From: Patescibacteria group bacterium
GTDB taxonomy: Bacteria > Patescibacteriota > Patescibacteriia > Patescibacteriales > XYC2-FULL-47-12
Assembly (NCBI GenBank): GCA_041666885.1
Contig: JBAYGB010000009.1
Span: 1-13,677 of the forward strand
Length of the DNA stretch: 13,677 nucleotides
Reading direction: 5' to 3'
This document shows, in pieces, positions 1,202 to 13,677 of this stretch. How positions within the stretch are numbered: the first letter of the stretch is position 1; the number at the start of each line of letters is the position of its first letter. Position numbers and translations under genes: made by a program. Below the pieces are notes generated by a model. It searched no databases, was not told the origin of the DNA, and saw nothing but the letters and a program-made list of their open reading frames with translations.

Positions 1202-2803
1202 TTATTCCTCATTTTTTGTACTGTTAAAGCCAGCTCCAAGAGCGGCGCCAGTGGCAGCAAAACCAGGGTGTGATCCTGATTCACTTAAAAAGACATTTGC
1301 TCCGGTTTTTTCTAAACTAAGTAAAAACCGTAGGCGCTGAATGTGTTGTGCTGCTTCTTCTGGGGTTAAGTTACCTTTATTTTGGAGATTTTCCAGTTCT
1401 TTTGCTAAGGCAGTTGCTTTTGTTATTATCGCCTCAGCCTCAGCATTAGCAATAGTTACAATTCCTTTGCCTCTCTCCACTGCCGCTTGCGCGTCATTTA
1501 TTGCCAGTAATAAATTCCGACGCACACCCTTGTCTTCTTCTGAAATGATAATATCAGCAACGGCAATACTAGTTATCTCAACGCCCCACTCCGCGAGTTG
1601 TTTTTCAATGGTGCTTTTTTCGGATTCTTTTGGCACTTGAGCGTCTAATTTTACACCATTTAAAATCCTCTCTTTGCACAAATCTGTTCTTTGGGAGTTT
1701 GCCTCGTTTAATTTTAAGGTGCCGAGATAGCCTCTTAAAACTGAATCAATTTTGCCACGAGTGGCTTTTAAAATATCTTCCGTTCCATAAGTTGCTTTTT
1801 TTGAGTCAATTATTTTGATAAAAGCAGTAGCGATAATTTGCGCTGACCCATCTAAAAAGTCAACTTCATTTTTTAGCATCGGGTTTCCTTGGTCATCAGT
1901 AGTATATAGACCAAGAATTATTTCCCCTTTAAACACTAAATGTTGCAAAATGCAAACATTAAACCATGGAAAAATAAAGTACAAGCCAGACGCTAATGGC
2001 TTACCTATATATTGTCCGAGTTTTTCCACAATTAACTCGTGATTTTGAGGAACGACAACGCATCCTTTCCAAAAAGAAATAATATGAATAACGATAAAAA
2101 CTGTTATTCCCATAAGGATTTCATTGCTCTTTAGCCATTCAATTAATGGATTTAATTTGAATAGCCATGAGTTTTCATCGGGCACGGGAATATAATTTAT
2201 TACTGTTATGGGTGCAACAATCAAAAATAAAATAATCAGAGTAAAAATAATCCAAATGGAACCAGCGACAATTTCTACTCGTACTTTATCTTTACAATGA
2301 AAAAAAATAAGAGCTAATACTGCTAATACGAATCCTGCAGAAAGTATTGTAACTAACGTTTCCATTGGTCCACTAAAAAGTTTACCATAAAAAAAGATAA
2401 CAGCACTTATTAATATTGTTGTAATTAATGTTGTCGTAATACCAAGAAGTGCTTTAAAAATTTTTTCCTTGATTTCTTTTTTAGGACTTTGCAACACGAA
2501 TGTTTTGATAATATTTGTGTTGACAATATTCAAGGAGATATTTATTATCTCTCCCTTTTGTAAATGATTTAAAGGATAGTTATAAATACATCCATTATCA
2601 TCCGTGTCCACAGTTGTGCTAATTACATTTTCTTTGTTCTTTTGGAAAATTATAATTTGGCATTTTTGCCCCCTGTCAAAGTTGGTAATAGCTTGAATAT
2701 TAAGTTGAAAGTCGCCGTCTTTACCGGAAATTTCATATTTAATTTCGGTAAAAATTTCAGGGGCATTTCCTAATGGCTCTTGTATTTCTAGTCCTTTATT
2801 CAT
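1202..2803 (-). CDS. SPFH/band-7 (stomatin/HflKC/flotillin-like) domain protein with an unusual N-terminal ~115-aa extra domain and 4 TM helices
   Basis: 533-aa ORF. Strong SD AGAGGAGAAAAATC precedes ATG 2803. The C-terminal half carries SPFH hallmarks (PQNHELIVEKLGQYIGKPLASGLYFIFPWFNV..., and an Ala/Glu-rich coiled-coil tail AQAAVERGKGIVTIANAEAEAIITKATALAKELENLQ). Four hydrophobic helices lie between residues ~120 and 250. Confidence 0.8.
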   Translation of the reverse strand: MNKGLEIQEPLGNAPEIFTEIKYEISGKDGDFQLNIQAITNFDRGQKCQIIIFQKNKENVISTTVDTDDNGCIYNYPLNHLQKGEIINISLNIVNTNIIKTFVLQSPKKEIKEKIFKALLGITTTLITTILISAVIFFYGKLFSGPMETLVTILSAGFVLAVLALIFFHCKDKVRVEIVAGSIWIIFTLIILFLIVAPITVINYIPVPDENSWLFKLNPLIEWLKSNEILMGITVFIVIHIISFWKGCVVVPQNHELIVEKLGQYIGKPLASGLYFIFPWFNVCILQHLVFKGEIILGLYTTDDQGNPMLKNEVDFLDGSAQIIATAFIKIIDSKKATYGTEDILKATRGKIDSVLRGYLGTLKLNEANSQRTDLCKERILNGVKLDAQVPKESEKSTIEKQLAEWGVEITSIAVADIIISEEDKGVRRNLLLAINDAQAAVERGKGIVTIANAEAEAIITKATALAKELENLQNKGNLTPEEAAQHIQRLRFLLSLEKTGANVFLSESGSHPGFAATGAALGAGFNSTKNEE

Positions 2804-2835
2804 GATTTTTCTCCTCTAACTAACTTTTTTCTAAA

Positions 2836-2918
2836 TTGTCTCGTTCTGCTCCTGATTTGTTCTCTTCAATTACCAAGAAAACCTGTTAACCGAAAAGATC
2901 AGGAACATAATGAGACAA
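2836..2918. promoter_or_regulatory. Imperfect 21-bp inverted repeat (17/21) in the 5' leader of the SPFH gene
   Basis: TTGTCTCGTTCTGCTCCTGAT (2836-2856) versus the reverse complement of ATCAGGAACATAATGAGACAA (2898-2918), flanking a 41-bp loop. Confidence 0.5.
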
Positions 2919-2975
2919 TCTAGATATTTATGAAGGCTTTAATTGCCTTGTTTGTAAGGAGCAAGATAATATTAT

Positions 2976-3004
2976 ATAATAGCATAAATAAAAAAATATG
3001 TCAA
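2976..3004 (-). promoter_or_regulatory. Sigma70-like promoter candidate TTGACA-N17-TATTAT for the SPFH operon
   Basis: On the minus strand, TTGACA (reverse complement of 2999-3004), a 17-nt spacer, then TATTAT (reverse complement of 2976-2981). This would give a ~165-nt leader containing the inverted repeat. The region is AT-rich, so chance is possible. Confidence 0.35.
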
Positions 3005-3050
3005 TTTGTAGACATATTTTTTACTAAAATTAGCTATTTATTATGATTAT

Positions 3051-3440
3051 CTATGGCACGTATTTATTAAATTCTTTTTTGGCCGCTATCGTTTCCTTTA
3101 TTTTTGGCAGTTGTTTTAACCGCTTAAATATAATATAAGCCCAAAAACCTTGGCCTATCGCCCACAGTAAAAACCAAAAGCGGGAGGATAAAAACGGCAC
3201 TGATTCATAGCAGAAAAATAACAACAGCGCGCCGATGATTGTGCCGGTCAGCGCGAAGTTATAACCCGAAAGCCAAAGTTTCGCGTATAGCGTTTTTTTG
3301 TTTTGGTTATAAAATTTCCAGGTAACGACAATGGAGGCGAGAAAAATAATGACAATAACTATCAACGCATATTGCCACATTTTAGTTAACGGACCCGGGT
3401 ACAAGCTAAACCACAGTTTAAAAGTGAAGAAGTTGGACAT
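3051..3440 (-). CDS. Small hypothetical membrane protein (about 3 TM helices)
   Basis: 129-aa ORF with ATG at 3440, hydrophobic helices (ALIVIVIIFLASIVVTW, ALTGTIIGALLLFFCY, FWFLLWAIGQGFWAYIIF) and no overlapping alternative. Function unknown. Confidence 0.5.
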   Translation of the reverse strand: MSNFFTFKLWFSLYPGPLTKMWQYALIVIVIIFLASIVVTWKFYNQNKKTLYAKLWLSGYNFALTGTIIGALLLFFCYESVPFLSSRFWFLLWAIGQGFWAYIIFKRLKQLPKIKETIAAKKEFNKYVP

Positions 3441-3449
3441 AAGTTTAAT

Positions 3450-3540
3450 TATCTCAAATTATTCCAAAAACCAAATTATTTCAAAATCCCGCCTATGGGC
3501 GGGCATTTGAGATAGTTTGGAATAATTTGAAGTTTGATTT
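3450..3540. repeat. Repeat-armed palindromic element: CAAAT/CCAAA-type arm, GC hairpin CCCGCCTATGGGCGGG (3488-3503), complementary TTTGG/TTTGA-type arm. Possible minus-strand terminator for the methyltransferase gene
   Basis: Left arm TATCTCAAATTATTCCAAAAACCAAATTATTTCAAAAT. Right arm CATTTGAGATAGTTTGGAATAATTTGAAGTTTGATTT contains the reverse complements of the left-arm units. On the minus strand the hairpin is followed by ATTTTGAAATAATTTGGTTTTTGG. Confidence 0.6.
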
Positions 3541-3542
3541 TA

Positions 3543-4097
3543 TTAATGTTTCAAAAATACTATTCCGAAATGATACGCGCCGGCGGAAAATTCTTCCATC
3601 AGTTCCAGCCCGAACCGCTGGCAGACGGCGACCAAATTTTCTTTGTTCAAACGCTCTTCAATGGATGGTCCGAACGGAGTGGCGATTTTTTTCCAGTCAA
3701 TAACTAATAGTTTGCCGCCGCGCTTTAACAGGCGCGTTGCTTCCCGTATTATTTCCGACCGCTTGTTTGATTGGAATAATATATTAATCAAGAGGGCGAT
3801 GTCAAGAGAGGAGCTTTCAATTTTGGTCGCCCCGAAAATTTCCAGATTGGACCAAACGGTTTTCACCTGTTTGATATTTTCTTGATTCGCGCGCCGCTCA
3901 ATATTAGCCAAGACATCTTTTAAAATATCCACCGCGTAGACCAAGCCGTGTTCGCCGACAGCGGAAGCCATGGGAAACACAAAATGGCCGGTGCGGCCGC
4001 AACCCAAATCGCCGACCGTCATTCGTTCGCCCATTTGCGTTTTTGTAACGACTATTTGCGGGTCAATCAGCGCGTTTCCTCCTGTTACTTTGGACAT
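3543..4097 (-). CDS. Class I SAM-dependent methyltransferase (small, Methyltransf_11-like)
   Basis: 184 aa. Motif I VGDLGCGRTGHF (GxGxG), a post-I acidic residue (VYAVD) and LLKRGGKLLVIDW (motif III-like). Confidence 0.8.
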   Translation of the reverse strand: MSKVTGGNALIDPQIVVTKTQMGERMTVGDLGCGRTGHFVFPMASAVGEHGLVYAVDILKDVLANIERRANQENIKQVKTVWSNLEIFGATKIESSSLDIALLINILFQSNKRSEIIREATRLLKRGGKLLVIDWKKIATPFGPSIEERLNKENLVAVCQRFGLELMEEFSAGAYHFGIVFLKH

Positions 4098-4104
4098 AAA
4101 TTAG

Positions 4105-4170
4105 GAGCTAGTATTTAGCCCGCCTGCCAAAGTTATGGCTTTGCATCGCGGGCAGGTAGCTAGTATTTAG
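4105..4170. repeat. 13-bp direct repeats AGCTAGTATTTAG (4106-4118 and 4158-4170) flanking a 39-bp GC-rich segment related to palindromic family 1
   Basis: The enclosed segment CCCGCCTGCCAAAGTTATGGCTTTGCATCGCGGGCAGGT shares CCCGC / GGCAGG motifs with the family-1 elements. Confidence 0.6.
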
Positions 4171-4213
4171 TATACAACAAAAAAATTAAAATTAAAAATG
4201 AAACTCTGTATTT

Positions 4214-4329
4214 TGTCATTCCCGCGCAGGCGGGAATCCCTGCCTACCGGCAGGTCAAACTTATTTTATCATTAGATTCCCGCTTTCGCTCGCCTCGTTG
4301 AAGCTCCGGCGAAGCGGGCGGGAATGACA
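4214..4329. repeat. GC-rich palindromic element family 1, copy 1 (TGTCATTCCCGCG...CGGGAATGACA termini, 116 bp)
   Basis: TGTCATTCCCGCGCAGGCGGGAATC at the 5' end and GCGGGCGGGAATGACA at the 3' end. Internal extra hairpin CCTGCCTACCGGCAGG. Sits in the gap between the methyltransferase start and the rnhB stop. Confidence 0.85.
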
Positions 4330-4341
4330 GTAAAAAAACAC

Positions 4342-4953
4342 TTACAAAAGTTTTTTCACCGGTTTGAATGTTTTTCGGTGTATTTCGCACGGCCCGTATA
4401 ATTTTAACGCGTTCAAATGCAATTTTGTGCCGTAGCCTTTATGTTGGTTGAAAAAATAGCGGGGATATTTTAAATGCATTTCTTCCATCATCGCGTCGCG
4501 GGCGACTTTGGCGAGAATGGAGGCGGCGGCAATGGAAAAAATCAGGCCATCGCCGTTAACTATCGCTTTTTGCGGTAAAGAATAATTGGGCAAGGGCAGA
4601 TTGCCGTCTACCAAAATAATTTGCGGCTTTAATTTTAAAATTGAAAGCGCTTTTTTCATCGCCAAAAAACTCGCCTGTAAAATATTAATGCGATCAATCG
4701 TTTCGTGGTTGCACAAACCGATGCCAAAACCTGCGGCGCGCTCCATAATCAGTTTAGCCAAATCAGTTCGTCTGTCCGCGCTTAATTTTTTTGAGTCATT
4801 TACAGCGTTTAATTCCGCCGGCACTTCGGAAAAATCAAAAATCACCGCCGCAGCGACTACCGGTCCGGCGAGCGGTCCGCGGCCGGCCTCGTCAATGCCG
4901 GCAATTACATTATAACCTTGTTGTTTTAAGTTCGTTTCGTAGGAAAAATCCAT
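4342..4953 (-). CDS. rnhB: Ribonuclease HII
   Basis: GIDEAGRGPLAGPVVAAAVIFD and the VNDSKKL / LVDGN motifs are diagnostic of RNase HII. The ORF table starts at a TTG (4959). The first ATG (4953-4951) gives MDFSYETN..., which aligns better with RnhB N-termini. Confidence 0.9.
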   Translation of the reverse strand: MDFSYETNLKQQGYNVIAGIDEAGRGPLAGPVVAAAVIFDFSEVPAELNAVNDSKKLSADRRTDLAKLIMERAAGFGIGLCNHETIDRINILQASFLAMKKALSILKLKPQIILVDGNLPLPNYSLPQKAIVNGDGLIFSIAAASILAKVARDAMMEEMHLKYPRYFFNQHKGYGTKLHLNALKLYGPCEIHRKTFKPVKKLL

Positions 4954-4966
4954 AGACAATATCCAC

Positions 4967-5057
4967 TGTCATTCCCGCGAAAGCGGGAATCTCATGTTTT
5001 GATAATCTTTAGATTCCCGCTTCCTGCCTGCCGGTAGGCAAGGTCGCGGGAATGACA
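4967..5057. repeat. GC-rich palindromic element family 1, copy 2 (91 bp), filling the gap between rnhB and the 126-aa ORF
   Basis: TGTCATTCCCGCGAAAGCGGGAATC ... AGATTCCCGC ... CCTGCCTGCCGGTAGGCAAGG ... GTCGCGGGAATGACA. The internal CCTGCC..GGCAGG hairpin is inverted relative to copy 1. Confidence 0.85.
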
Positions 5058-5062
5058 ATTGA

Positions 5063-5443
5063 TTAAAACGGCCACCAACTTTTCTTCCTCGGTTGCTCTT
5101 TAACAACTTGCGCAAAGGATTCGTTTTTGGCGGCATCAGTTTGTCGTTCCGCCATCGCCTGCAAACGATCAAGTTCTTCTTGCACGAGCGGGCTGTCGTA
5201 TTCGCCCGCGTGCGCGGTTTGCCCTTCGTAGCGGGTTTGGCGCTGGTCCAAATGCAGATTAAAAGTTGTTTGTCCTCCTTGTTCAAAAATATAACAATGA
5301 AAGCGCGGATAAAAATCGCGCGTTAAGCGGCGCGCAAAACTTTCTTGTCCGCTTTGGCGATCATGAATATATGTATAGCCGGCGCGGCGGAGAAAATTTG
5401 CCGGAGATTCTTTTAAGTTTTGGGAAGAAATGGTAAGGCGCAT
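5063..5443 (-). CDS. Conserved-looking hypothetical protein of 126 aa with a basic/aromatic core (FLRRAGYTYIHDRQSGQESFARRL...YPRFHCYIFEQGG...FNLHLDQ)
   Basis: Clean ATG at 5443, protein-like composition, and no competing ORF. I do not recognise the family. The RDFYPRFH segment loosely resembles an Rx4-6H motif, which is weak evidence. Confidence 0.5.
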   Translation of the reverse strand: MRLTISSQNLKESPANFLRRAGYTYIHDRQSGQESFARRLTRDFYPRFHCYIFEQGGQTTFNLHLDQRQTRYEGQTAHAGEYDSPLVQEELDRLQAMAERQTDAAKNESFAQVVKEQPRKKSWWPF

Positions 5444-5494
5444 GTAATTAGTTTATAAAATTACTGTTAAATTGTTTTATTGTTAAATTATTAA

Positions 5495-5630
5495 CCCCTC
5501 CGTCCCGAGCGACTCGGGACACCTCCCCTTATAAAGGGGAGGAATAATGCGGAACAACGACAATGTTAAATCGGCATTTATTCTCCCTCTTTATAAGGGG
5601 GAGTGTCCGACGTCTCGGCGGACGAGGGGG
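5495..5630. repeat. About 136-bp GC/G-tract-rich imperfect palindrome with ~41-bp arms, each composed of two hairpins
   Basis: Arm 5502-5542 GTCCCGAGCGACTCGGGACACCTCCCCTTATAAAGGGGAGG. The reverse complement of arm 5583-5623 is GTCCGCCGAGACGTCGGACACTCCCCCTTATAAAGAGGGAG. The arms are separated by a 40-bp AT-rich centre. Runs of G of length 4 or more lie in and downstream of the right arm (5597-5675). Confidence 0.8.
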
Positions 5631-5708
5631 TCGGGAAACGCCGAAGGCAAAGGGGTTGAGGATTTAGAGGGGGTTAACAATGGAGCAATGGAACAATCTT
5701 ACTATTTG

Positions 5709-6635
5709 TTATTTTTCCAGCCACTTCCTCGCCGCCATCGCCGCCATACCGCCGAAACCGGCCGAAGTGATGGTTTGACGATAAATAAAATCGGCGCATT
5801 CGCCTGCGGCAAAGACACCTTCAATATTGGTGTAGACATTTTCCGTGACAGCGATATGACCTTCTTTTTCGTTTAAGGTTAACTGTCCTTTAAAAATTTC
5901 AGTATTGGGAATATGCCCGATAGCGAAAAACAAGCCATCAAGCGGCAATTCGGAAATCACATTCGTAACAATATTTTTTATTTTTACGCCGGTCAGTCTG
6001 GCTTCTCCCAGATATTCCGTTACTTCACTGTTTAAAATAAGCTCAATTTTTTTATTGGCGAACGTGCGCTGTTTCATAATTTCGCTCGCGCGGAATTCAT
6101 CGCGGCGGTGGATTAAATAAACTTTGTCGGCGAATTTGGTCAGAAAATTGCTTTCTTCCATCGCGCTGTCGCCGCCGCCGATAACGGCGACTGTCTTGCC
6201 GCGATAGAAAAAACCGTCACAAGTCGCGCAGATATGCAGGCCGCGCGCTAATAATTCTTTCTCTTTCGGCAGGTTTAAAGTGCGATAGCGGGAGCCGGTC
6301 GCGACAATCACCGTTCGCGCCTGATAAATTTCATTACCGACAAAAATTTTTTTCGGTTCTTCTGTAAAATCAACTTTGTCCGCCGCGGCGAATTTTATTT
6401 CCGCGCCGAAGCGTTCCGCTTGTTTTTGCATGTTTTGCATCAGTTGCGGGCCGGCGACTCCTTCCGGAAAACCGGGAAAATTTTCTATCACCGTAGTTGT
6501 TGTCGGCTGTCCGCCGGGTTGCGGGCCGGCTAAAACCAGAGGCGCGAGACCGGCGCGCGCGGCGTAAATCGCGGCAGTGTAACCGGCCGGTCCGGAGCCG
6601 ATGATAATGAGTTCGCGAATGTTGTCAGTAGACAT
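5709..6635 (-). CDS. trxB: Thioredoxin-disulfide reductase
   Basis: N-terminal FAD motif IIGSGPAGYTAAIYAARAG, redox-active CATCDG, and NADPH motif VAVIGGGDSAMEE. I chose ATG 6635 (MSTDNIRELIIIGSGPAG) over the ORF-table ATG 6677, which lies inside palindromic element copy 3. Confidence 0.92.
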   Translation of the reverse strand: MSTDNIRELIIIGSGPAGYTAAIYAARAGLAPLVLAGPQPGGQPTTTTVIENFPGFPEGVAGPQLMQNMQKQAERFGAEIKFAAADKVDFTEEPKKIFVGNEIYQARTVIVATGSRYRTLNLPKEKELLARGLHICATCDGFFYRGKTVAVIGGGDSAMEESNFLTKFADKVYLIHRRDEFRASEIMKQRTFANKKIELILNSEVTEYLGEARLTGVKIKNIVTNVISELPLDGLFFAIGHIPNTEIFKGQLTLNEKEGHIAVTENVYTNIEGVFAAGECADFIYRQTITSAGFGGMAAMAARKWLEK

Positions 6636-6671
6636 AAAGATAATTGTTAATTGTGTTAAACATTTAAATAT

Positions 6672-6735
6672 TGTCATTCCCGCGCAGGCGAGAATCTACT
6701 CTTACTCTTAGATTTCCGCCTGCGCGGGAATGACA
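6672..6735. repeat. GC-rich palindromic element family 1, copy 3 (minimal 64-bp form) in the divergent trxB/infB promoter region
   Basis: TGTCATTCCCGCGCAGGCGAGAATC, then TACTCTTACTCTT, then GATTTCCGCCTGCGCGGGAATGACA. The arms are near-perfect reverse complements (24/25). The centre is a TACTCTT 7-mer x2. Confidence 0.85.
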
Positions 6736-6792
6736 GGATAAAAAAATTCTATATCAATATCATATCTTAACTAAACTTTTTAATCAATTTTC

Positions 6793-6821
6793 TTGACTTT
6801 AAACCGGTTTTCAATTAAAGT
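6793..6821 (+). promoter_or_regulatory. Sigma70-like promoter candidate TTGACT-N17-TAAAGT for infB, implying a very short leader
   Basis: TTGACT 6793-6798, a 17-nt spacer, TAAAGT 6816-6821, and only 9 nt to the ATG at 6831. No SD. Confidence 0.35.
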
Positions 6822-6830
6822 AAAAATACT

Positions 6831-8813
6831 ATGAATATAACCGAATTAGCCAGAAGATTAAAACTCACCACGAGCGAGTTGTTTGACACTTTGCCTCAGC
6901 TCGGTTTTGACATTGGCCGGCGGGCGATTAAAATTGACGACCATATCGCTTATAAAATCGTCGCCAACTGGTCAATTTACAAAAAACAGCTGGACGCCAA
7001 AAAAATCGCCGCGGGTGAAATGGCGGCGCCGGTCGCCAATCCGGCCGACAAAAAAACGATTACCATCCCGCCGCAAATCGTGGTGCGGGATTTTGCCGCG
7101 CTAGCCGGTTTGAACGTCAGCAAGGTTTTGACGGAATTGATGAAAAACGGAATTTTTATTTCCATGAATGAAAAAATAGATTTTGACGCCGCGTCCATTA
7201 TCGGCGCGGATTTGAATTTGGAAGTGCTTTTGGACGAGACGGCCGACATCAGCGGACAAAGCGACAACAAATTAAAAAATATCATGGATAAACAGGACAA
7301 AGCGCATTTGGAAGCGCGGCCGCCGGTAGTGGTGGTAATGGGACACGTTGACCATGGTAAAACCAAACTCTTGGACGCCATTCGTGAAACCAACGTAGTG
7401 GCGGGGGAAGCGGGCGGCATTACGCAGCATATCGGCGCGTACCAAATTGAACAGCGGGGTCAGACGATAACTTTCATTGATACTCCCGGACACGAAGTTT
7501 TTACCGCCATGCGCAGCCGCGGAGCGAAAGTGGCGGATGTCGCGATTTTGGTCGTGGCCGCCGATGACGGCGTAAAACCGCAAACCGTTGAAGCGTATCA
7601 TATTATTGAACAGGCAAAAATTCCGTTTGTCGTCGCGATTAATAAAATTGACAAACCCGAGGCGGATATTGACCGCGTCAAAAGCGAATTGTCCAATCAG
7701 TTGCACATTACGCCTGATGATTGGGGTGGAAAAACAATGTGCGTGCCGATTTCCGCCCGAGATAAAATCGGCATTGATAAACTTTTAGACGCGGTATTGT
7801 TTTTAACCGAAATGGAAAAAGAAAAAATTATCGCGAACCCGAATGCGTCGGCGGTCGGCACGGTGGTGGAATCAAACGTGGATAAAGGCGAAGGGCCGGT
7901 CGCGACGATTTTAATTCAAAACGGCACTCTGCGCGCCGGTGAGATTCTTTGTTTTAACAATGAACCTTTGGGCCGGGTGCGCATCATGAAAAATTATCGG
8001 GGAGAGATAGTGCCAGTTGCCACGCCGGCCATGCCGGTTAGAATATCCGGCTTAAAATCCAGCCCGAGCATCGGCGATATTGTGGAAGTTGTTTGCGCCG
8101 GGGAAACGGCGACCGGCAGCGGCAAAAAAATGCGCTTGGGTAAAATTAAAAAAGGAAATTTTAAATCGGCGACGACGTCAACCGCCGCCTCGGCGGAAAA
8201 TAATGCCAGCGTAAAGTTTGTTAATATTGTTATTCGTACGGATGTCTTGGGTTCCGTTGAAGCGATTGAAGAGGCGTTGGAAAAATTGGGCACGGCGGAG
8301 GTAAAAGTAAAAATAATAAAAAAAGGTTTGGGAAACTTTACGGAAAGCGATGTGCATACGGCCTTCGCGGCCAAAGCCTGCGTTTTGGGATTTAACGCGG
8401 AAATCAATCATGCGGTCAATCTGCTCGCGCGTGAAAAAGGCGTGGAAGTAAAAAGTTTTTCCATTATTTACGAATTGGTTGATTTTATTAAACAAAAAAT
8501 GGAAGTGTTATCCCCCAAACCGGTCGTCAGAAAAGGATTGGGAACGATAAAAGTTTTAGCCATTTTTAAAACCGGCAATAACAGCCAAATCATCGGCGGT
8601 AAAGTGGAAAGCGGATTGATTGAACTTAACGCCAAAATTGAAGCGGTGCGCGATGATATGGTTATCGCGATTGGCGAATTGGTTGGGTTGCAGTCAGGAA
8701 AACAAAGCGTCGTTGATGTTGCGAGCGGGCAGGAATGCGGCGTGGAATTCAAGGGCGAACCGGTGATTAAGTCGGGCGATGTACTGAGAGTATATAAAGA
8801 AATTACGAATTAA
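6831..8813 (+). CDS. infB: Translation initiation factor IF-2
   Basis: IF2_N-like N-terminus. G-domain motifs [12 protein letters not shown] (G1), DTPGHEVF (G3) and AINKID (G4), followed by IF-2 domain II through C2. 660 aa. Confidence 0.95.
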
Positions 8814-8960
8814 GAATTAAGAATTACGAATGAGGAATTAAGAATGCAGAATGCAAATTAAGTTAAAAGTGAAAAGTTAAAATTGTTTGCCTCGCCGCAG
8901 CTTCTAGCGAAGGCGGGTTAAATTGTTTGAAAATTAGAAATTGAAAATTGAAAATTTTTA
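8800..8960. repeat. Degenerate heptamer array (GAATTAA/GAATGCA/TTAAAAG x ~12), then bulged hairpin 8895-8916 flanked by direct repeats GTTAAA(A)TTGTTTG, then (GAAAATT)x4
   Basis: 7-nt periodicity is visible from 8807 to 8889 and from 8929 to 8956. The infB stop codon is part of the first GAATTAA unit. The TTG at 8941 used by the ORF caller for rbfA lies inside the GAAAATT array. Confidence 0.8.
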
Positions 8961-8964
8961 TCAT

Positions 8965-9312
8965 ATGCCCCGAAGAATAGAACAAGTTAATGAAATGCTG
9001 CGCGCGGAAATTGCGCTCGCGATCGCGCGCGAACTGGATTTTTCGGACGCGCTTTTGACCGTGACCAAGGTTGACTGCGCGCGCGAACTGGACGAGGCGA
9101 GAGTCTGGATCTCGGTTTTGCCGGATAATCGCGCCGGCTCGGCGATGCAAGCTTTGCGCCGCGGACAGAGCCTGATTCGACAGGCAATCGGCAAAAAAAT
9201 TTCCTGGCGCCGCTTACCGCGGTTTATTTTTATTTTTGACGATACGGAAAAGCACGCCGCCGTCATTGATAATATTTTTAAAGAAATTAACCAAGCAGAA
9301 ATTAATGGCTAA
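8965..9312 (+). CDS. rbfA: Ribosome-binding factor A
   Basis: MPRRIEQVNEMLRAEIALAIAREL...VTKVDCARELDEARVWISVL aligns with the RbfA N-terminal consensus (RxxRVxExLxxEIAxIL...VTxVxxSxDLxxAxVYVx). I chose ATG 8965 over the upstream TTG 8941. Confidence 0.85.
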   Translation: MPRRIEQVNEMLRAEIALAIARELDFSDALLTVTKVDCARELDEARVWISVLPDNRAGSAMQALRRGQSLIRQAIGKKISWRRLPRFIFIFDDTEKHAAVIDNIFKEINQAEING

Positions 9313-10267
9313 CGATTCCGTCTATCAAGAAATAATAAACAAGCTCGCGACCGCTCGCAAAGTTTTTTTGGCCACGCATGAAAACCCGGACGGCGACGCG
9401 GTCGCTTCCATCTGCGCTTTTGCCGAATGGCTTAGACTATTGGGAAAAGAATTTTATCTTTTTTGCGCGGACGAGCCGGAAGACGGCTTTCATTTTTTGC
9501 CGCAAATGGAAAAAATAAATCGGCGGATGGAAGAAATTGATTTTGACGATTTTGATTTGATTATCGTGCTGGATTGCGGCGCTTTGCACCGGACAAAAAT
9601 TGAAACGGAGATAAAGGCAAGCAATTTGGTAATCATCAATATTGACCATCATATTTCCAATAATCAATTCGGCAGCATAAATTTAGTTGACGCCGAAGCC
9701 GCCTCCACCACGCAGTTGTTATATGAACTTTTTAAATTCAGCAAATTGGAAATCAGCCGCCAGCTCGCAAGTTGCATTCTGACCGGCATTATTACCGACT
9801 CCGGCAGTTTCGCTTATGCGGCAACTAACGCCAATACTTTCAGTGTGGCGAGTGAAATGTTGACGCGGGGCGCGAATGTGCGCGCGATTGTAAATTACAC
9901 GGAAAAAAATAAAAATTTAGCCACTTTAAAAGCGTGGGGCTATGCTTTGAGCCAGATGCATTACAATGCCGATTACGATATTGCTTATACCGTCATCACG
10001 CAGGCGGATTTGATAAAATTCAACATCACCAAGCAGGATTTGGAAGGTTTGGCTAGTTTTTTAAATAATTTGAAAGATGCTAAAATAATATTGGTGCTGT
10101 ACGAACTCGGAGACGGGCGGGTAAAAGGCAGTTTGCGCACGAACTTAATCAACGTTGATGTCGCAAAATTAGCCCAAGTATTTGGCGGCGGCGGGCACAG
10201 GAAAGCGGCGGGATTTGAAGTTGAAGGAAAATTGGCGCAGGCGGGCGGTGGTTGGAGAATTGAATAA
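9305..10267 (+). CDS. nrnA: DHH/DHHA1 family phosphoesterase, NrnA-like (oligoribonuclease / pAp phosphatase)
   Basis: DHH motifs HENPDGDAVAS, VLDCG, NIDHH and the DHHA1 motif GGGGHRKAAGF. The ATG at 9305 overlaps the rbfA stop (ATGGCTAA, 8-nt overlap), so the two are translationally coupled. The ORF-table start 9236 is a TTG extension. Confidence 0.85.
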   Translation: MANDSVYQEIINKLATARKVFLATHENPDGDAVASICAFAEWLRLLGKEFYLFCADEPEDGFHFLPQMEKINRRMEEIDFDDFDLIIVLDCGALHRTKIETEIKASNLVIINIDHHISNNQFGSINLVDAEAASTTQLLYELFKFSKLEISRQLASCILTGIITDSGSFAYAATNANTFSVASEMLTRGANVRAIVNYTEKNKNLATLKAWGYALSQMHYNADYDIAYTVITQADLIKFNITKQDLEGLASFLNNLKDAKIILVLYELGDGRVKGSLRTNLINVDVAKLAQVFGGGGHRKAAGFEVEGKLAQAGGGWRIE

Positions 10268-10364
10268 AATAGTTAATCAGTTGAACAGTTAATTAGTTAA
10301 ATAGTTTTTGATATTTTATAACAACTAATTAACTATTCAACTAAGTAACTAATCAACTAAAACT
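10268..10364. repeat. Repeat-armed palindromic element filling the whole nrnA-clpP gap: (AGTTRAWY)x5 left arm, TTTGATATTTTAT centre, (NYAACTAA)x5 right arm
   Basis: Left arm AGTTAATC AGTTGAAC AGTTAATT AGTTAAAT AGTTTTTG. Right arm ACAACTAA TTAACTAT TCAACTAA GTAACTAA TCAACTAA AACTATG. The arms are approximate reverse complements with period 8. Confidence 0.8.
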
Positions 10365-10943
10365 ATGCCTCTAATTCCCACAGTCATTGAAAAATCGCAA
10401 TTCGGCGAACGGGCGTACGATATTTATTCCCGTTTGCTTAAAGACCGCATTATTTTTTTGGGCGAACCGGTCACGGACGTGGTCGCGAACATTATTATCG
10501 CCCAGTTTTTATTTTTGGACGCGCAAGACGGCACGAAAGATATTAAATTTTATATCAACACTCCGGGCGGTTCAGTTACCGCCGGCATGGCGATTTATGA
10601 TACGATGCAATATGTAAAATCGGATGTGTCCACTATTTGCGTCGGCATGGCCGCGAGCATGGGCGCAATTTTACTCGCTTCCGGCGCGGCGGGTAAACGG
10701 TTTGCTTTGCCGAACGCGGAAGTGATGATCCATCAAATCATGGGCGGCGCTGAAGGACAGGCGGTGGATATCAAAATTCAGGCCGAGCATATTTTAAAAT
10801 TAAAAGACAAGTTGAATCAGATTTTAGCCAAACATACCGGCCAAAAAATTCCGACCATTGAGCGCGATACCGACCGTGATTATTTTATGAGCGCGGAAGA
10901 GGCGAAAAAATACGGGATCGTTGATAAAATTATTGCAAAGTAA
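10365..10943 (+). CDS. clpP: ATP-dependent Clp protease proteolytic subunit
   Basis: [16 protein letters not shown], catalytic Ser in GMAASMGA, His in MIHQ, and the C-terminal Asp region. 192 aa. Confidence 0.95.
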
Positions 10944-10969
10944 TTTTGATAAATTTCCATGAATTATGA

Positions 10970-10996
10970 GGCGGCGTCACTTTGATGTCGCCTTTT
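10970..10996 (+). terminator. Rho-independent terminator after clpP
   Basis: 9-bp stem GGCGGCGTC/GATGTCGCC (two G-U wobbles), 5-nt loop, followed by TTTTGTT. Confidence 0.5.
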
Positions 10997-10999
10997 GTT

Positions 11000-11113
11000 A
11001 GATATTGGATATTAAGATATTAGGATATTGCGCTGCGAAAGCAAGAAGTTTATTATGATGATAATACTATTTCCATGCGTTGCGAATATTCAATATCCTA
11101 ATATTCAATATCT
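11000..11113. repeat. Repeat-armed palindromic element, GGATATT family, copy A (clpP-lgt gap)
   Basis: Left arm AGATATT GGATATT AAGATATT AGGATATT (11000-11029). Reverse complement of right arm 11084-11113 is AGATATT GAATATT AGGATATT GAATATT. A 54-bp unique centre separates them. The right arm ends 12 nt before the lgt ATG. Confidence 0.85.
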
Positions 11114-11125
11114 TGTATTACAATT

Positions 11126-12025
11126 ATGAATTTTTTACATTTTTATCTTCCCCAGCCAATTTTATTTCACTTAGGCGTGATAAATGTTTATTGGTACGGT
11201 TTTTTAATGGCGCTGGCGATACTCGCCGGATTGCTCGTGAGCGTGCGCGTGGCCAAGTGGCACGGAGTTGATAAAGAAATTATTTATGATTTATTTTTTT
11301 ACGTTGTTATCGCCGGCTTTATCGGCGCGCGTATTTTTTATATTTTGTATAACCCGGAATATTTTTGGCAGCATCCGTTAGATATTTTTAAAATTTGGCA
11401 AGGCGGAATTGCGATTCACGGCGCGTTGATTTTTGGAATTTTGGCAATAATTTGGTTTGTGCGGCGCATGCCGCCGATAGAGACGTTGCATTGCAACGTC
11501 TCTACGATGAAAAACAATTTTTGGTTGTTGTCCGCAATCATCGCGCCCGGTCTTGCGCTGGGACAGGCGATTGGTCGGTGGGGTAATTATTTTAATCAGG
11601 AATTATTCGGCCGACCGACTGATTTGCCCTGGGGCATTCCGATTGATTTGATAAATCGACCCGCCGGATTTGAACAGTTTACTTATTTTCACCCAACGTT
11701 TTTGTATGAGAGCGTTGGAGATTTAACGATATTCATATTATTATTATTGACGCATTGGTTTTTTGCGCATAATACAAGAAACGGGGAACGAGTAACAAGT
11801 AACGGGCAAAAACCGTTAAATAATCATTCTCTCATTACTCATTACTCATTACTCATTACTTTATATTTATTACTGTATTCTTTATTGCGTTTTATGATTG
11901 AATTTTTGCGCATTGACCCGACCGCCGGCAGTATTTTTGGGGTGCGGGCGACGATGGGGCTGAGTTTGTTAATAGGCGTTGGCGTGTTATTATATTGGCG
12001 CGCCATATTTTATTTAAAAAGATGA
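11126..12025 (+). CDS. lgt: Prolipoprotein diacylglyceryl transferase, carrying an in-frame repeat-element insertion in a C-terminal loop
   Basis: N-terminal VYWYGFLMALAIL and the Lgt signature GQAIGRWGNYFNQELFGRPTDLPWGIPID. Compared with E. coli Lgt, about 23 extra residues (AHNTRNGERVTSNGQKPLNNHSLITHYSLLITLY) lie between the sixth helix and the LRFMIEFLR segment. Confidence 0.88.
   Translation: MNFLHFYLPQPILFHLGVINVYWYGFLMALAILAGLLVSVRVAKWHGVDKEIIYDLFFYVVIAGFIGARIFYILYNPEYFWQHPLDIFKIWQGGIAIHGALIFGILAIIWFVRRMPPIETLHCNVSTMKNNFWLLSAIIAPGLALGQAIGRWGNYFNQELFGRPTDLPWGIPIDLINRPAGFEQFTYFHPTFLYESVGDLTIFILLLLTHWFFAHNTRNGERVTSNGQKPLNNHSLITHYSLLITLYLLLYSLLRFMIEFLRIDPTAGSIFGVRATMGLSLLIGVGVLLYWRAIFYLKR
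11790..11874. repeat. Intragenic repeat-armed palindromic element inside lgt: (AGTAACR)x2, then hairpin AACGG-GCAAAAA-CCGTT, then (CATTACT)x4
   Basis: AGTAACA 11791-11797 and AGTAACG 11798-11804. Centre hairpin 11801-11817. CATTACT at 11833, 11840, 11847 and 11854 (reverse complement AGTAATG), plus degenerate units TCATTCT and TATTACT on either side. The reading frame is preserved and encodes LITHYSLLITLY. Confidence 0.85.
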
Positions 12026-12054
12026 CCGCTTGCTTTTTTTCTTCAACCTTGATA

Positions 12055-12063
12055 TGATACAAT
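12055..12063 (+). promoter_or_regulatory. Extended -10 candidate TGaTACAAT upstream of rpsT
   Basis: TGATACAAT about 86 nt upstream of the rpsT ATG. AT-rich context, so weak evidence. Confidence 0.25.
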
Positions 12064-12095
12064 AAGTTAAAATAATAAATCTAATAAAAATTTAA

Positions 12096-12138
12096 GGCGG
12101 GTAGCGGCAGTCGCGGGATTGCTTCGCTCGCAATGACA
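12096..12138. repeat. Truncated half-copy of palindromic family 1 in the rpsT 5' leader
   Basis: GGCGGGTAGCGGCAGTCGCGGGATTGCTTCGCTCGCAATGACA shares TTCGCTCGC and GCGGGAATGACA-like ends with copy 1. It ends 10 nt before the rpsT ATG and can form a GC hairpin. Confidence 0.6.
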
Positions 12139-12148
12139 GATTAAAATT

Positions 12149-12415
12149 ATGCCTAACATCAAAGCGGCCATGAAAGCCTTGCGCAAAAGCAAAAAAGTAA
12201 AAATAACGAACGACGCCGTTAAAAACAACATTGGACGGCTGATCAAAAAATCGCGGAAAGCGATTGACGCTAAAGCCGATACCGCCAAAGATTTGGTTCA
12301 GCAAACGGTAAAAGCGCTGGATAAAGCGGTGCAGAAAAAAATATTAAAGCCGAACACCGGCAACCGCAAGAAATCAAGATTGATGAAAAAACTCAACCAG
12401 ATAATCGCAAAATAA
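12149..12415 (+). CDS. rpsT: 30S ribosomal protein S20
   Basis: 88 aa, Lys/Ala-rich: MPNIKAAMKALRKSKKVKITNDAVKNNIGRLIKK...LKPNTGNRKKSRLMKKLNQI, which matches the S20 consensus (MANxKSAxKRxR...N...RKKS...). It lies divergent to holA, as in many bacteria. Confidence 0.9.
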   Translation: MPNIKAAMKALRKSKKVKITNDAVKNNIGRLIKKSRKAIDAKADTAKDLVQQTVKALDKAVQKKILKPNTGNRKKSRLMKKLNQIIAK

Positions 12416-12433
12416 CAAAGTTTGTTAAAATAA

Positions 12434-12466
12434 AAAAATCCCCTAGAAATAAGGGATTTTTTATTT
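12434..12466. terminator. Strong bidirectional rho-independent terminator after rpsT
   Basis: AAAAATCCC-CTAGAAATAA-GGGATTTTT followed by TATTT. An A-run upstream and a T-run downstream allow function on both strands (rpsT on plus, holA on minus). Confidence 0.7.
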
Positions 12467-12545
12467 AATATTAGGATATTGGATATTAAGATATTAAATG
12501 CCGCGATTTTGAAAGTTCTGTCGATATCATAATATCCTAATATCC
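12467..12545. repeat. Repeat-armed palindromic element, GGATATT family, copy B (rpsT-holA gap)
   Basis: Left arm AATATT AGGATATT GGATATT AAGATATT. Reverse complement of right arm 12524-12545 is CTGGATATT AGGATATT ATGATAT. It shares an identical 24-mer GATATTGGATATTAAGATATTA with copy A. The centre differs (AAATGCCGCGATTTTGAAAGTTCTGTCG). Confidence 0.85.
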
Positions 12546-12576
12546 AGTCTCTGGCAGAAAAAAGCAGAAGTATTGA

Positions 12577-13593
12577 TTAAGGATTAGCGGCGAATAATAA
12601 AGTTAGGCCGGTTAATCCGTCGCCCTGTCCGGTTTTTATCTTGTAATCAAGCTCGGTAATTTGCGTTAGAATATTTTTTAAATAATCCATATTGAAATTG
12701 CGCGTTTGCGGCATGGTTTTTTGCACGACAAACGGATGCAGTTTGAGCGCGGCGGCGATTTGCGCCGGCGCTTGTCCGGCAATAGTTTGTTCTTTGATTT
12801 GCAAGATTATTTTAAACTGGCGGGAAATCATCGCCATAATTTGCTGCAAACTCGCGCCCGCCTCCAATTCGTTTTCCAATAGGGAAAAAAATAAAGCCTT
12901 GTTTTTATTGCCCAGCGCGTCGGTCAGCGCGAAAATGTTTTCTTCCGCCGCGCCTTTAATCAGTTGCCTTGCGTCTGCCAAAGTTATTTCCGCGCCGCCT
13001 TGCTTTTGGGTAAAATTAATCAATTTTTCCAATTCATTATGCGCTAACCACAGGTTCGATCCGGTCGCGCTGATTAACAAACTTAACGCCTGCGGATTGA
13101 CGCGCAAACCGGCCTTGCTCGCGTATTGTTTAATCCAAGTTTGCAGTTTTAAATTATCCAAGCCGTTGAACTGCTCGGAAAATTTTTGCGTTTTTAAATA
13201 CTCAAATAGTTTTTTGCGCGCCACAGTCAACTTGCCTGCCGAAGAGGCAGGTTTTTTTTCGCCATACTTTTTGCTTTCCAGGTTTCTCGCTTCATAAAAA
13301 ATCAACGAATTTTCATTATTATCTTTTTCTAATTTTTGCAGGAAAGCCAAAAGCGGTTTGAAAATCGTTTCTTCTTTGTGGCTGAATAAATCGGAAATGA
13401 TCAGCAGACGTTTTTCCGCCAAAAGCGAGCCGGAAGAAATTTTGCCGTTTATTTCATCCAGATTGGTTTTACTCCCGTCAATACTGACAACGTTGTTGCC
13501 TTGCGGGTCGCGCTGTTTTTTAAATTGTTCAATCAGCGCATTCAATTTTTGCCGGCTGCGGAAATTATCGGCGCCGTAAAGAAAGATAATCAC
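12577..13593 (-). CDS. holA: DNA polymerase III delta subunit
   Basis: N-terminus (V/M)IIFLYGADNFRSRQKL... matches the HolA consensus (iyllyGeD.fl). 338 aa with helical C-terminal domains. The start codon is GTG at 13593, and no in-frame ATG lies nearby. The gene abuts the GAATTAA array. Confidence 0.8.
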   Translation of the reverse strand: MIIFLYGADNFRSRQKLNALIEQFKKQRDPQGNNVVSIDGSKTNLDEINGKISSGSLLAEKRLLIISDLFSHKEETIFKPLLAFLQKLEKDNNENSLIFYEARNLESKKYGEKKPASSAGKLTVARKKLFEYLKTQKFSEQFNGLDNLKLQTWIKQYASKAGLRVNPQALSLLISATGSNLWLAHNELEKLINFTQKQGGAEITLADARQLIKGAAEENIFALTDALGNKNKALFFSLLENELEAGASLQQIMAMISRQFKIILQIKEQTIAGQAPAQIAAALKLHPFVVQKTMPQTRNFNMDYLKNILTQITELDYKIKTGQGDGLTGLTLLFAANP

Positions 13594-13677
13594 AAATTAA
13601 GAATTAAGAATTAAGAATTAAGAATTAAGAATTAAGAATTAAGAATTAAGAATTAAGAATTAAGAATTAAGAATTAA
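13594..13677. repeat. Perfect heptamer microsatellite (GAATTAA)x11 preceded by AAATTAA, immediately upstream of the holA start; the array runs off the window end
   Basis: 13601-13677 is exactly 11 x GAATTAA with no mismatch. It is the same unit as the degenerate array after infB (8807-8889). Confidence 0.95.

Follow-up and report, generated by a model that had tools for sequence, protein, structure and literature searches.

A perfect heptanucleotide array between murI and holA in a Patescibacteria genome, probably a young repeat born of replication slippage

The window, by which we mean the whole stretch of 13,677 nucleotides analysed here, is an entire JGI contig of a Patescibacteria genome that stops on the last base of a tandem array of heptanucleotides. 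Adjoining this array on the minus strand is holA, which was recognized from Pfam matches to DNA_pol3_delta_C (E=5.7e-29) and DNA_pol3_delta (E=2e-5), from 543 homologues at E<=1e-20, the nearest named of which belong to Candidatus Falkowbacteria / Patescibacteria, and from its conserved N-terminus. The GTG start of holA directly abuts the array (0 nt) and is homologous to the ATG start of its relatives, with which the encoded protein shares the N-terminus MIIFLYG; an in-frame TAA is situated two codons 5' of the GTG. An initial annotation had proposed both holA with its GTG start and a perfect heptamer array abutting it, and both are confirmed, the former by the Pfam matches and the homologous start, the latter by the sequence itself and by Tandem Repeats Finder (TRF; 100% matches). 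The main features are the following.

12577..13593, minus strand: holA (DNA polymerase III delta subunit), 338 aa; Pfam, homologues, conserved N-terminus
13594..13677, minus strand: heptanucleotide array; repeat finding, probe scan, second assembly
8800..8845, plus strand: degenerate GAATTAA/GAATTAC/GAATGAG array; probe, TRF
8846..8882, plus strand: drifted continuation of the preceding array, GAATGCA x2, then AAGTTAA x3.3; TRF, sequence
8922..8961 (TRF 8927-8956), plus strand: TTGAAAA-type heptamer array, ending 8 nt before the rbfA ATG

On the plus strand, positions 13594-13677 read AAATTAA followed by 11 perfect GAATTAA units, which on the sense (minus) strand correspond to 11 copies of TTAATTC followed by TTAATTT, for a total of 12 units and 84 nt. 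TRF reports 13595-13677 with a period of 7, 11.9 copies and a score of 166. When the window was scanned with a 21-nt probe of three units, allowing <=3 mismatches and with 200 dinucleotide-preserving shuffles as the control, 10 overlapping positions matched within the array and 0 of the 200 shuffles had any match; elsewhere in the window the probe matched only at 8800-8841. The array carries a TAA stop in all six frames and is non-coding. It is an intergenic heptanucleotide simple-sequence repeat of the LSSR5-11/STRR-like kind, and it displays the tandem purity, intergenic location, dispersed related arrays and rapid turnover that characterize these repeats. A CRISPR array was considered and rejected, the units being 7 nt long and arranged head to tail without spacers, whereas CRISPR repeats measure 23-50 nt and alternate with unique spacers of similar size, and Rfam 15 at gathering score returned 0 matches in the window and in the second assembly described below. 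The sequence at 4186-4206, previously read as a three-unit trace of the same unit, proved to be a low-complexity, period-6 A/T run of the AAAATT/AAAAATT type that is devoid of G and has no probe match.

The array can be viewed in full in a second assembly with an identical holA protein, the 15,600-nt contig k141_900543 of ENA ERZ27249449 (locus L001), which is 100% identical to window positions 2577-13677 across 11,101 nt and runs 1,923 nt past the window end. Both assemblies agree on 12 units, and the array, which had been expected to continue ('x11+'), ends exactly where the window does. Beyond it lies murI (Asp_Glu_race), whose TAA stop falls inside the first sense-strand unit of the array (reverse complement at 13674-13676), and murI is in turn preceded by murD, with murD, murI and holA all on the same strand. 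Because the array overlaps the murI stop codon and abuts the holA GTG, it constitutes the complete 80-nt murI-holA spacer, and murD-murI-holA likely form an operon in which the array is an internal spacer. With coding sequence, including the murI stop, bounding the array on both sides, there is no inverted partner arm of the type for which the initial annotation had advised extending the sequence.

A scan restricted to the sigma-70 consensus found no promoter-like -35/-10 pair in or near the array, although promoter rules in Patescibacteria are poorly known, and a consensus scan found no intrinsic terminator between murI and holA. This result, and the termination of the co-oriented murI within the first unit, place any holA promoter beyond the array; the initial annotation had put it in or beyond the array. 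The sense RNA, (UUAAUUC)12, contains no G and is fully unpaired in its predicted minimum-free-energy fold (z=+0.81), and as single-stranded DNA the array has a minimum free energy of -0.1 kcal/mol (z=+2.6), making it less structured than 199 of 200 shuffles. An intrinsic terminator or REP-type hairpin was rejected as the identity of the array on three grounds: there is no partner arm, the folds are unpaired and the terminator scan was negative. The sequence upstream of holA has no Shine-Dalgarno (SD) sequence and no GGAG- or GAGG-type motif, and SD-like motifs were found in only 2 of 15 neighboring genes.

The holA-side array is one of two GAATTAA-type arrays in the 15.6 kb, and the two have opposite orientations relative to transcription. 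The second begins in the last codons of infB, whose TAA stop (8811-8813) sits within a unit; its G-containing strand is the sense strand, and it was detected through four probe matches in 8800-8841 and by TRF (8801-8845, 6.4 copies, 84%), which together substantiate the degenerate copy that had been noted at the infB stop. Downstream of its drifted continuation are a GC-rich hairpin at about 8888-8917 and the TTGAAAA-type array at 8922-8961, which includes a weak promoter-like match (TTGAAA-17-GAAAAT). Across the 15.6-kb contig, tandem repeats cover 21% of intergenic vs 2.3% of coding nucleotides, units of 8 nt are as common as units of 7 nt, and, GAATTAA-type arrays aside, arrays of 7- and 8-nt units are present in 7 of the 11 spacers longer than 90 nt. 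Additionally, arrays of 7-8-nt units end 0-14 nt 5' of the start codons of holA, clpP, rbfA and lgt. The holA-side array is part of a lineage-specific filling of spacers by arrays with units of 7-8 nt.

The array at the holA junction is not conserved: all the relatives that were compared either lack it or have something else in its place. One relative, at 72% identity, has murD and holA overlapping by 4 nt; a second, at 59%, separates murD from holA by 2 nt; and a third, at 57%, has the order murD-murI-holA and a 114-nt spacer that is an imperfect hairpin of unrelated sequence. Other spacers of the window are likewise longer than those of the 59% relative, namely the infB-rbfA (151 vs 3 nt), rpsT-holA (161 vs 6 nt) and DHH-clpP (97 vs 25 nt) spacers. 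As a separate observation, the hairpin-forming murI-holA spacer of the 57% relative (L010) harbors an IS200/IS605-type Y1 transposase gene at 3356-3799, and two members of the same holA cluster (L011 and L012) have no transposase gene in that spacer.

The closest comparison is offered by a sister strain (L278), retrieved via the holA 90% cluster, whose holA is 93.7% identical at the nucleotide level and whose other genes are 76-90% identical. In this strain murI has been cut down to a short 5' remnant ORF (region 9898-10000), the right-hand junction of the deletion is a TTGAAAA-type array, and holA begins with an ATG preceded by that degenerate TTGAAAA-type heptamer array, not by TTAATTC units. 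The 40-nt window segment 8922-8961, located upstream of rbfA, recurs as an exact copy directly upstream of holA in the sister strain; such a copy at a non-orthologous site shows that arrays are also moved between sites by recombination or copying, besides expanding in place. The infB-rbfA array also differs, with about 7 units here vs about 4 GAATTAC-type units in the orthologous spacer of the sister strain. The recent expansion envisaged in the initial annotation is plausible, given the 11 perfect units and the lack of the array in a strain with so similar a holA. Searches for length variants with the holA 5'-end pattern, exact or wobble, gave 0 matches in metagenome contigs, and the holA 90% cluster comprises the window contig, its ENA/NCBI twin and one sister strain, with no further population.

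Beyond this lineage, a search for four exact units, (GAATTAA)x4, retrieved at least 120 stretches in GTDB species genomes (loci L013-L132) and at least 120 in metagenomes (loci L279-L398). The GTDB matches fall in Cyanobacteria, Bacteroidota, Spirochaetes, Clostridia, Lentisphaerae, Ignavibacteria and Halobeggiatoa, and among the Patescibacteria in Parcubacteria, Saccharibacteria and Daviesbacteria. None of the 252 arrays among the matches listed in the two datasets lies inside an ORF. Nevertheless, GAATTAA as a specific element conserved across phyla was rejected, in that viral contigs contain heptamers of matched composition about as often: GAATTAA was found in 23 stretches there, five matched heptamers in 12-25 and TAACTGA in 32. 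The 120 array-bearing GTDB loci also hold 130 period-7 arrays of other units, together with 3 arrays at period 6 and 19 at period 8. Because matched heptamers are equally common and other period-7 arrays abound, the wide distribution is best explained as the outcome of a general heptamer process. A literature search found no bacterial repeat unit GAATTAA, AATTAAG, TTAATTC or CTTAATT.

Among the 120 GTDB loci the only orthologous arrays are a pair in Ferruginibacter (L014 2969-3010 vs L102 7304-7338), with 6 vs 5 perfect units and flanks that are about 77% identical; opposite each of these arrays there is also a short arm of related heptamers in inverted orientation. GAATTAA arrays are common assembly break points. 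One Parcubacteria MAG contig (L052, 6201-6277), too, has an array of 11 GAATTAA units at its end, and of 126 metagenome arrays 20 (about 16%) are no more than 40 nt from a locus end.

The arrays of other genomes are biased in strand where they adjoin stop codons. Of the arrays that start at a stop codon or shortly downstream of one, 47 of 51 in one dataset and 45 of 52 in the other have the G-containing strand as sense, or 92 G-sense vs 11 C-sense when pooled (n=103); these counts rest on crude longest-ORF gene calls and on species that were not de-replicated, and for that reason the bias is a lead only. Start-adjacent arrays have G-sense to C-sense ratios of 7:14 and 9:13, which are not significant. 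An inverted partner lies no more than 300 nt away for about 20% of arrays, and in these pairs the G arm precedes the other in 21 cases vs 4 with the reverse order. Stop-codon content cannot explain the bias because both orientations have TAA in every frame, and purely neutral slippage does not predict such a bias beside stop codons. In the window, the infB-side array follows the G-sense rule; the murI-holA array, which also adjoins a stop codon, is oriented like the minority of such arrays.

Several known systems invite comparison. STRR heptanucleotide repeats of cyanobacteria were reportedly described by Mazel et al. in 1990, a work that PMC4692102 cites. The array resembles these and the other LSSR5-11 repeats (long simple-sequence repeats whose units measure 5-11 bp) in its head-to-tail 7-nt intergenic units, in that one genome contains several arrays whose units may be related or different, in a high turnover between related genomes, in a free-living non-pathogen host and in having no established function. 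It differs from them in residing in a small-genome member of the Patescibacteria instead of a large-genome cyanobacterium or xanthomonad, in the AT-rich GAATTAA unit as opposed to G-rich units, and in the company of 8-nt units as common as 7-nt ones. Heptamers are over-represented among bacterial simple-sequence repeats, for which polymerase slippage has been proposed, according to the passages of PMC4692102 that cite Mrazek 2007; the predominance of period 7 in the GTDB loci agrees with this. In Xanthomonas and Nostoc, the GGGAATC / GGGGAYT heptamers combine G-richness with the formation of G-quadruplexes (Rehm et al. 2015, PMC4692102). These too are intergenic arrays, sometimes paired in inverted orientation, whose length and sequence differ from one close species to the next, and one example given by Rehm et al. 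is inside an operon (pecE-pecF); in contrast, GAATTAA cannot form a G-quadruplex and has no predicted structure.

A second parallel is with the TAACTGA heptamer arrays that occur just upstream of SD-less start codons in marine Beggiatoaceae, Cyanobacteria and Bacteroidetes (MacGregor 2015, PMC4679880), for which binding of ribosomal protein S1 was proposed (MacGregor, PMC4679880). Both are stop-containing intergenic heptamers that end a few nt (here 0 nt) before a start without an SD sequence, both can precede essential genes, and in both cases the spacers of close relatives are shorter and free of the array. Their taxonomic spread is also similar, since the GAATTAA scan matched Halobeggiatoa along with many Cyanobacteria and many Bacteroidota. 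The holA-side array differs, however, in its unit (GAATTAA/TTAATTC), in its 12 copies compared with 2-6 in the BOGUAY genome, and in its placement between two cistrons of an operon, overlapping the upstream stop codon. Finally, there are the heptamers of phase variation. In Haemophilus influenzae hmw1A and hmw2A, 7-bp repeats of documented length variation are located between the mapped promoter and the start of the adhesin gene. The holA-side array shares with these and other phase-variation repeats (SSR survey, PMC2651432) a perfect 7-bp array upstream of a gene and an expected slippage mutability; unlike hmw1A/hmw2A, it has no sigma-70-like promoter consensus, and holA is a housekeeping gene within a likely operon.

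The reading that we favor, with moderate confidence, is that a young slippage-made heptamer repeat fills an operon spacer, where it is tolerated or serves as a mildly useful AU-rich leader. As judged from the purity of its units and its turnover between strains, the heptanucleotide repeat was most likely born of replication slippage. It would account for all of the transcribed murI-holA spacer of a putative murD-murI-holA operon in a Falkowbacteria-like Patescibacteria genome, and holA would be read through from a promoter upstream of murI. In the mRNA, folding predictions suggest, the array would form a G-free, U/A-rich, unstructured (UUAAUUC)12 leader, compatible with and perhaps mildly favoring SD-independent initiation at the GTG, for example by ribosomal protein S1 or standby binding. 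We infer the read-through and the AU-rich leader because the promoter and terminator scans and the folds were negative, SD motifs are few and arrays lie near start codons. A change in unit number probably could not shift a reading frame and would alter only the length of the spacer, which is why we regard the array as tolerated and not as a switch.

Of the other explanations, a selected translational cis-element has the most weight, but we judge it rather unlikely, both in its premise that (UUAAUUC)n forms a platform for S1 or a Csp-/CsrA-like protein and in its further premise that this platform drives or tunes SD-independent holA initiation after ribosomes terminate at the murI stop. It would account for an unstructured, U-rich array that abuts a start codon without an SD motif, and for the arrays of 7-8-nt units that end 0-14 nt before the starts of four window genes. 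It also fits the C-sense excess, not significant, among start-adjacent arrays elsewhere (14:7 and 13:9), and the heptamer array of another unit that directly precedes the holA ATG in the sister strain; the same hypothesis has been published for the TAACTGA arrays of Beggiatoaceae (PMC4679880). However, the unit sequence differs even between sister strains, relatives start holA with a spacer of 0-2 nt, and composition-matched heptamers are equally common, and therefore no specific binding motif is indicated. A contingency locus, in which slippage would shift the unit number and with it promoter geometry or leader length, so that holA is switched or graded, is very unlikely. A perfect array of 11-12 units is expected to be hypermutable, and in one of the two assemblies the contig stops right at the array, as could happen with heterogeneous reads; yet both assemblies have 12 units, the sigma-70 consensus scan of the array and its surroundings found no pair of promoter-like hexamers, the upstream murI is co-oriented and ends inside the array, and unrelated sequence fills the position upstream of holA in relatives. 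Moreover, holA is an essential housekeeping gene, encoding the delta subunit of the clamp loader, and not a gene for surface structures, host interaction or restriction-modification. For much the same reasons (no predicted promoter overlap, differing holA upstream regions in relatives, a housekeeping gene), the suggestion in the initial annotation that array length modulates holA expression appears unsupported, as far as the sequence can tell.

Two further possibilities receive still less weight. An intra-operon Rho-loading or attenuator site, which would make holA transcription dependent on ribosome traffic, is highly improbable: the 84-nt sense RNA, with no G, a UC dimer every 7 nt and no structure, has features of a Rho utilisation site, and C-sense arrays are strongly avoided right after stop codons elsewhere (4 of 51 and 7 of 52), as expected if they were polar, but the C content is 14%, the 15.6 kb bear no sign of Rho, polarity on an essential gene seems costly and the idea is pure inference. 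An assembly artefact, in the form of a collapsed or chimeric low-complexity contig end, had been named in the initial annotation as what would undo its interpretation, and it is scarcely credible. The window contig does end on the last array base, and for about 16% of such arrays a contig or locus end is no more than 40 nt away. Set against this, the independent k141 contig runs through all 84 nt of the array, with unique, syntenic sequence on either side, and reaches murI and murD with the gene order intact; the murI ORF closes properly in the first array unit; and the murD-murI-holA order matches that of the 57% relative.

A broader and more speculative proposition is that heptamer arrays are no neutral microsatellites but portable, strand-specific leader and trailer modules of SD-poor bacteria, with purine-rich (GAAUUAA)n selected immediately after stops and pyrimidine-rich (UUAAUUC)n immediately before starts, that they are copied from one intergenic site to another by recombination, and that the array here sets holA translation relative to murI. 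We consider this doubtful and improbable, and no less so in its extension to the SD-poor bacteria that it would embrace, namely Patescibacteria, Bacteroidota, Cyanobacteria and Beggiatoaceae. On the best reading, the holA-side array is a fast-evolving member of a known, functionally unexplained group of intergenic heptamer repeats and not a conserved regulatory switch. As a labile spacer, it matters little for this locus. Its interest is that it extends the known heptamer-repeat phenomenon to the small-genome Patescibacteria, that sister strains carry two different heptamer arrays at the same holA start codon, and that the contig breaks off at the array, a practical caution to anyone assembling or binning genomes. 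If the strand bias survives proper gene calling, it would argue for selection at the level of transcription or RNA and not for slippage alone.

The contig also carries repeats of other kinds. At 10267-10306 and 10322-10360, two arrays with units of 8 nt (AAATAGTT-like and CAACTAAT-like) face each other as inverted arms, with 90% complementarity and a distance of 24 nt between them; these arrays (10267-10360) fill the DHH-clpP spacer and end 4 nt 5' of the clpP ATG. A GATATTRR family of 8-mers is present as inverted arms at 11000-11030 / 11091-11113 in the clpP-lgt spacer and at 12468-12496 / 12524-12551 in the convergent rpsT-holA spacer, which indicates a dispersed repeat family distinct from GAATTAA. 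A nested structure at 5465-5702 comprises a GC-rich inverted repeat with 54-nt arms (5494-5547 / 5578-5631) inside inverted 8-nt arrays, at 5465-5494 (TGTTAAAT) and 5676-5697 (AACAATGG). GC-rich, REP-like inverted repeats with the core TGTCATTCCCGCG / GTCATTGCGAG are found in the window at 4215-4330, 4961-5063, 6663-6744 and about 12100-12140, and in the second assembly at 955-1075; one repeat with this core, between murD and murI, is conserved in the sister strain. Within the lgt ORF (11126-12025) are an in-frame perfect heptamer array, CTCATTA x4.3, at 11831-11860 and a 27-nt perfect palindrome at about 11478-11504. Both of these lie in insertions of 7-8 residues relative to the Lgt of a relative, and the CTCATTA heptamer is kept in the sister strain (13614-13642).
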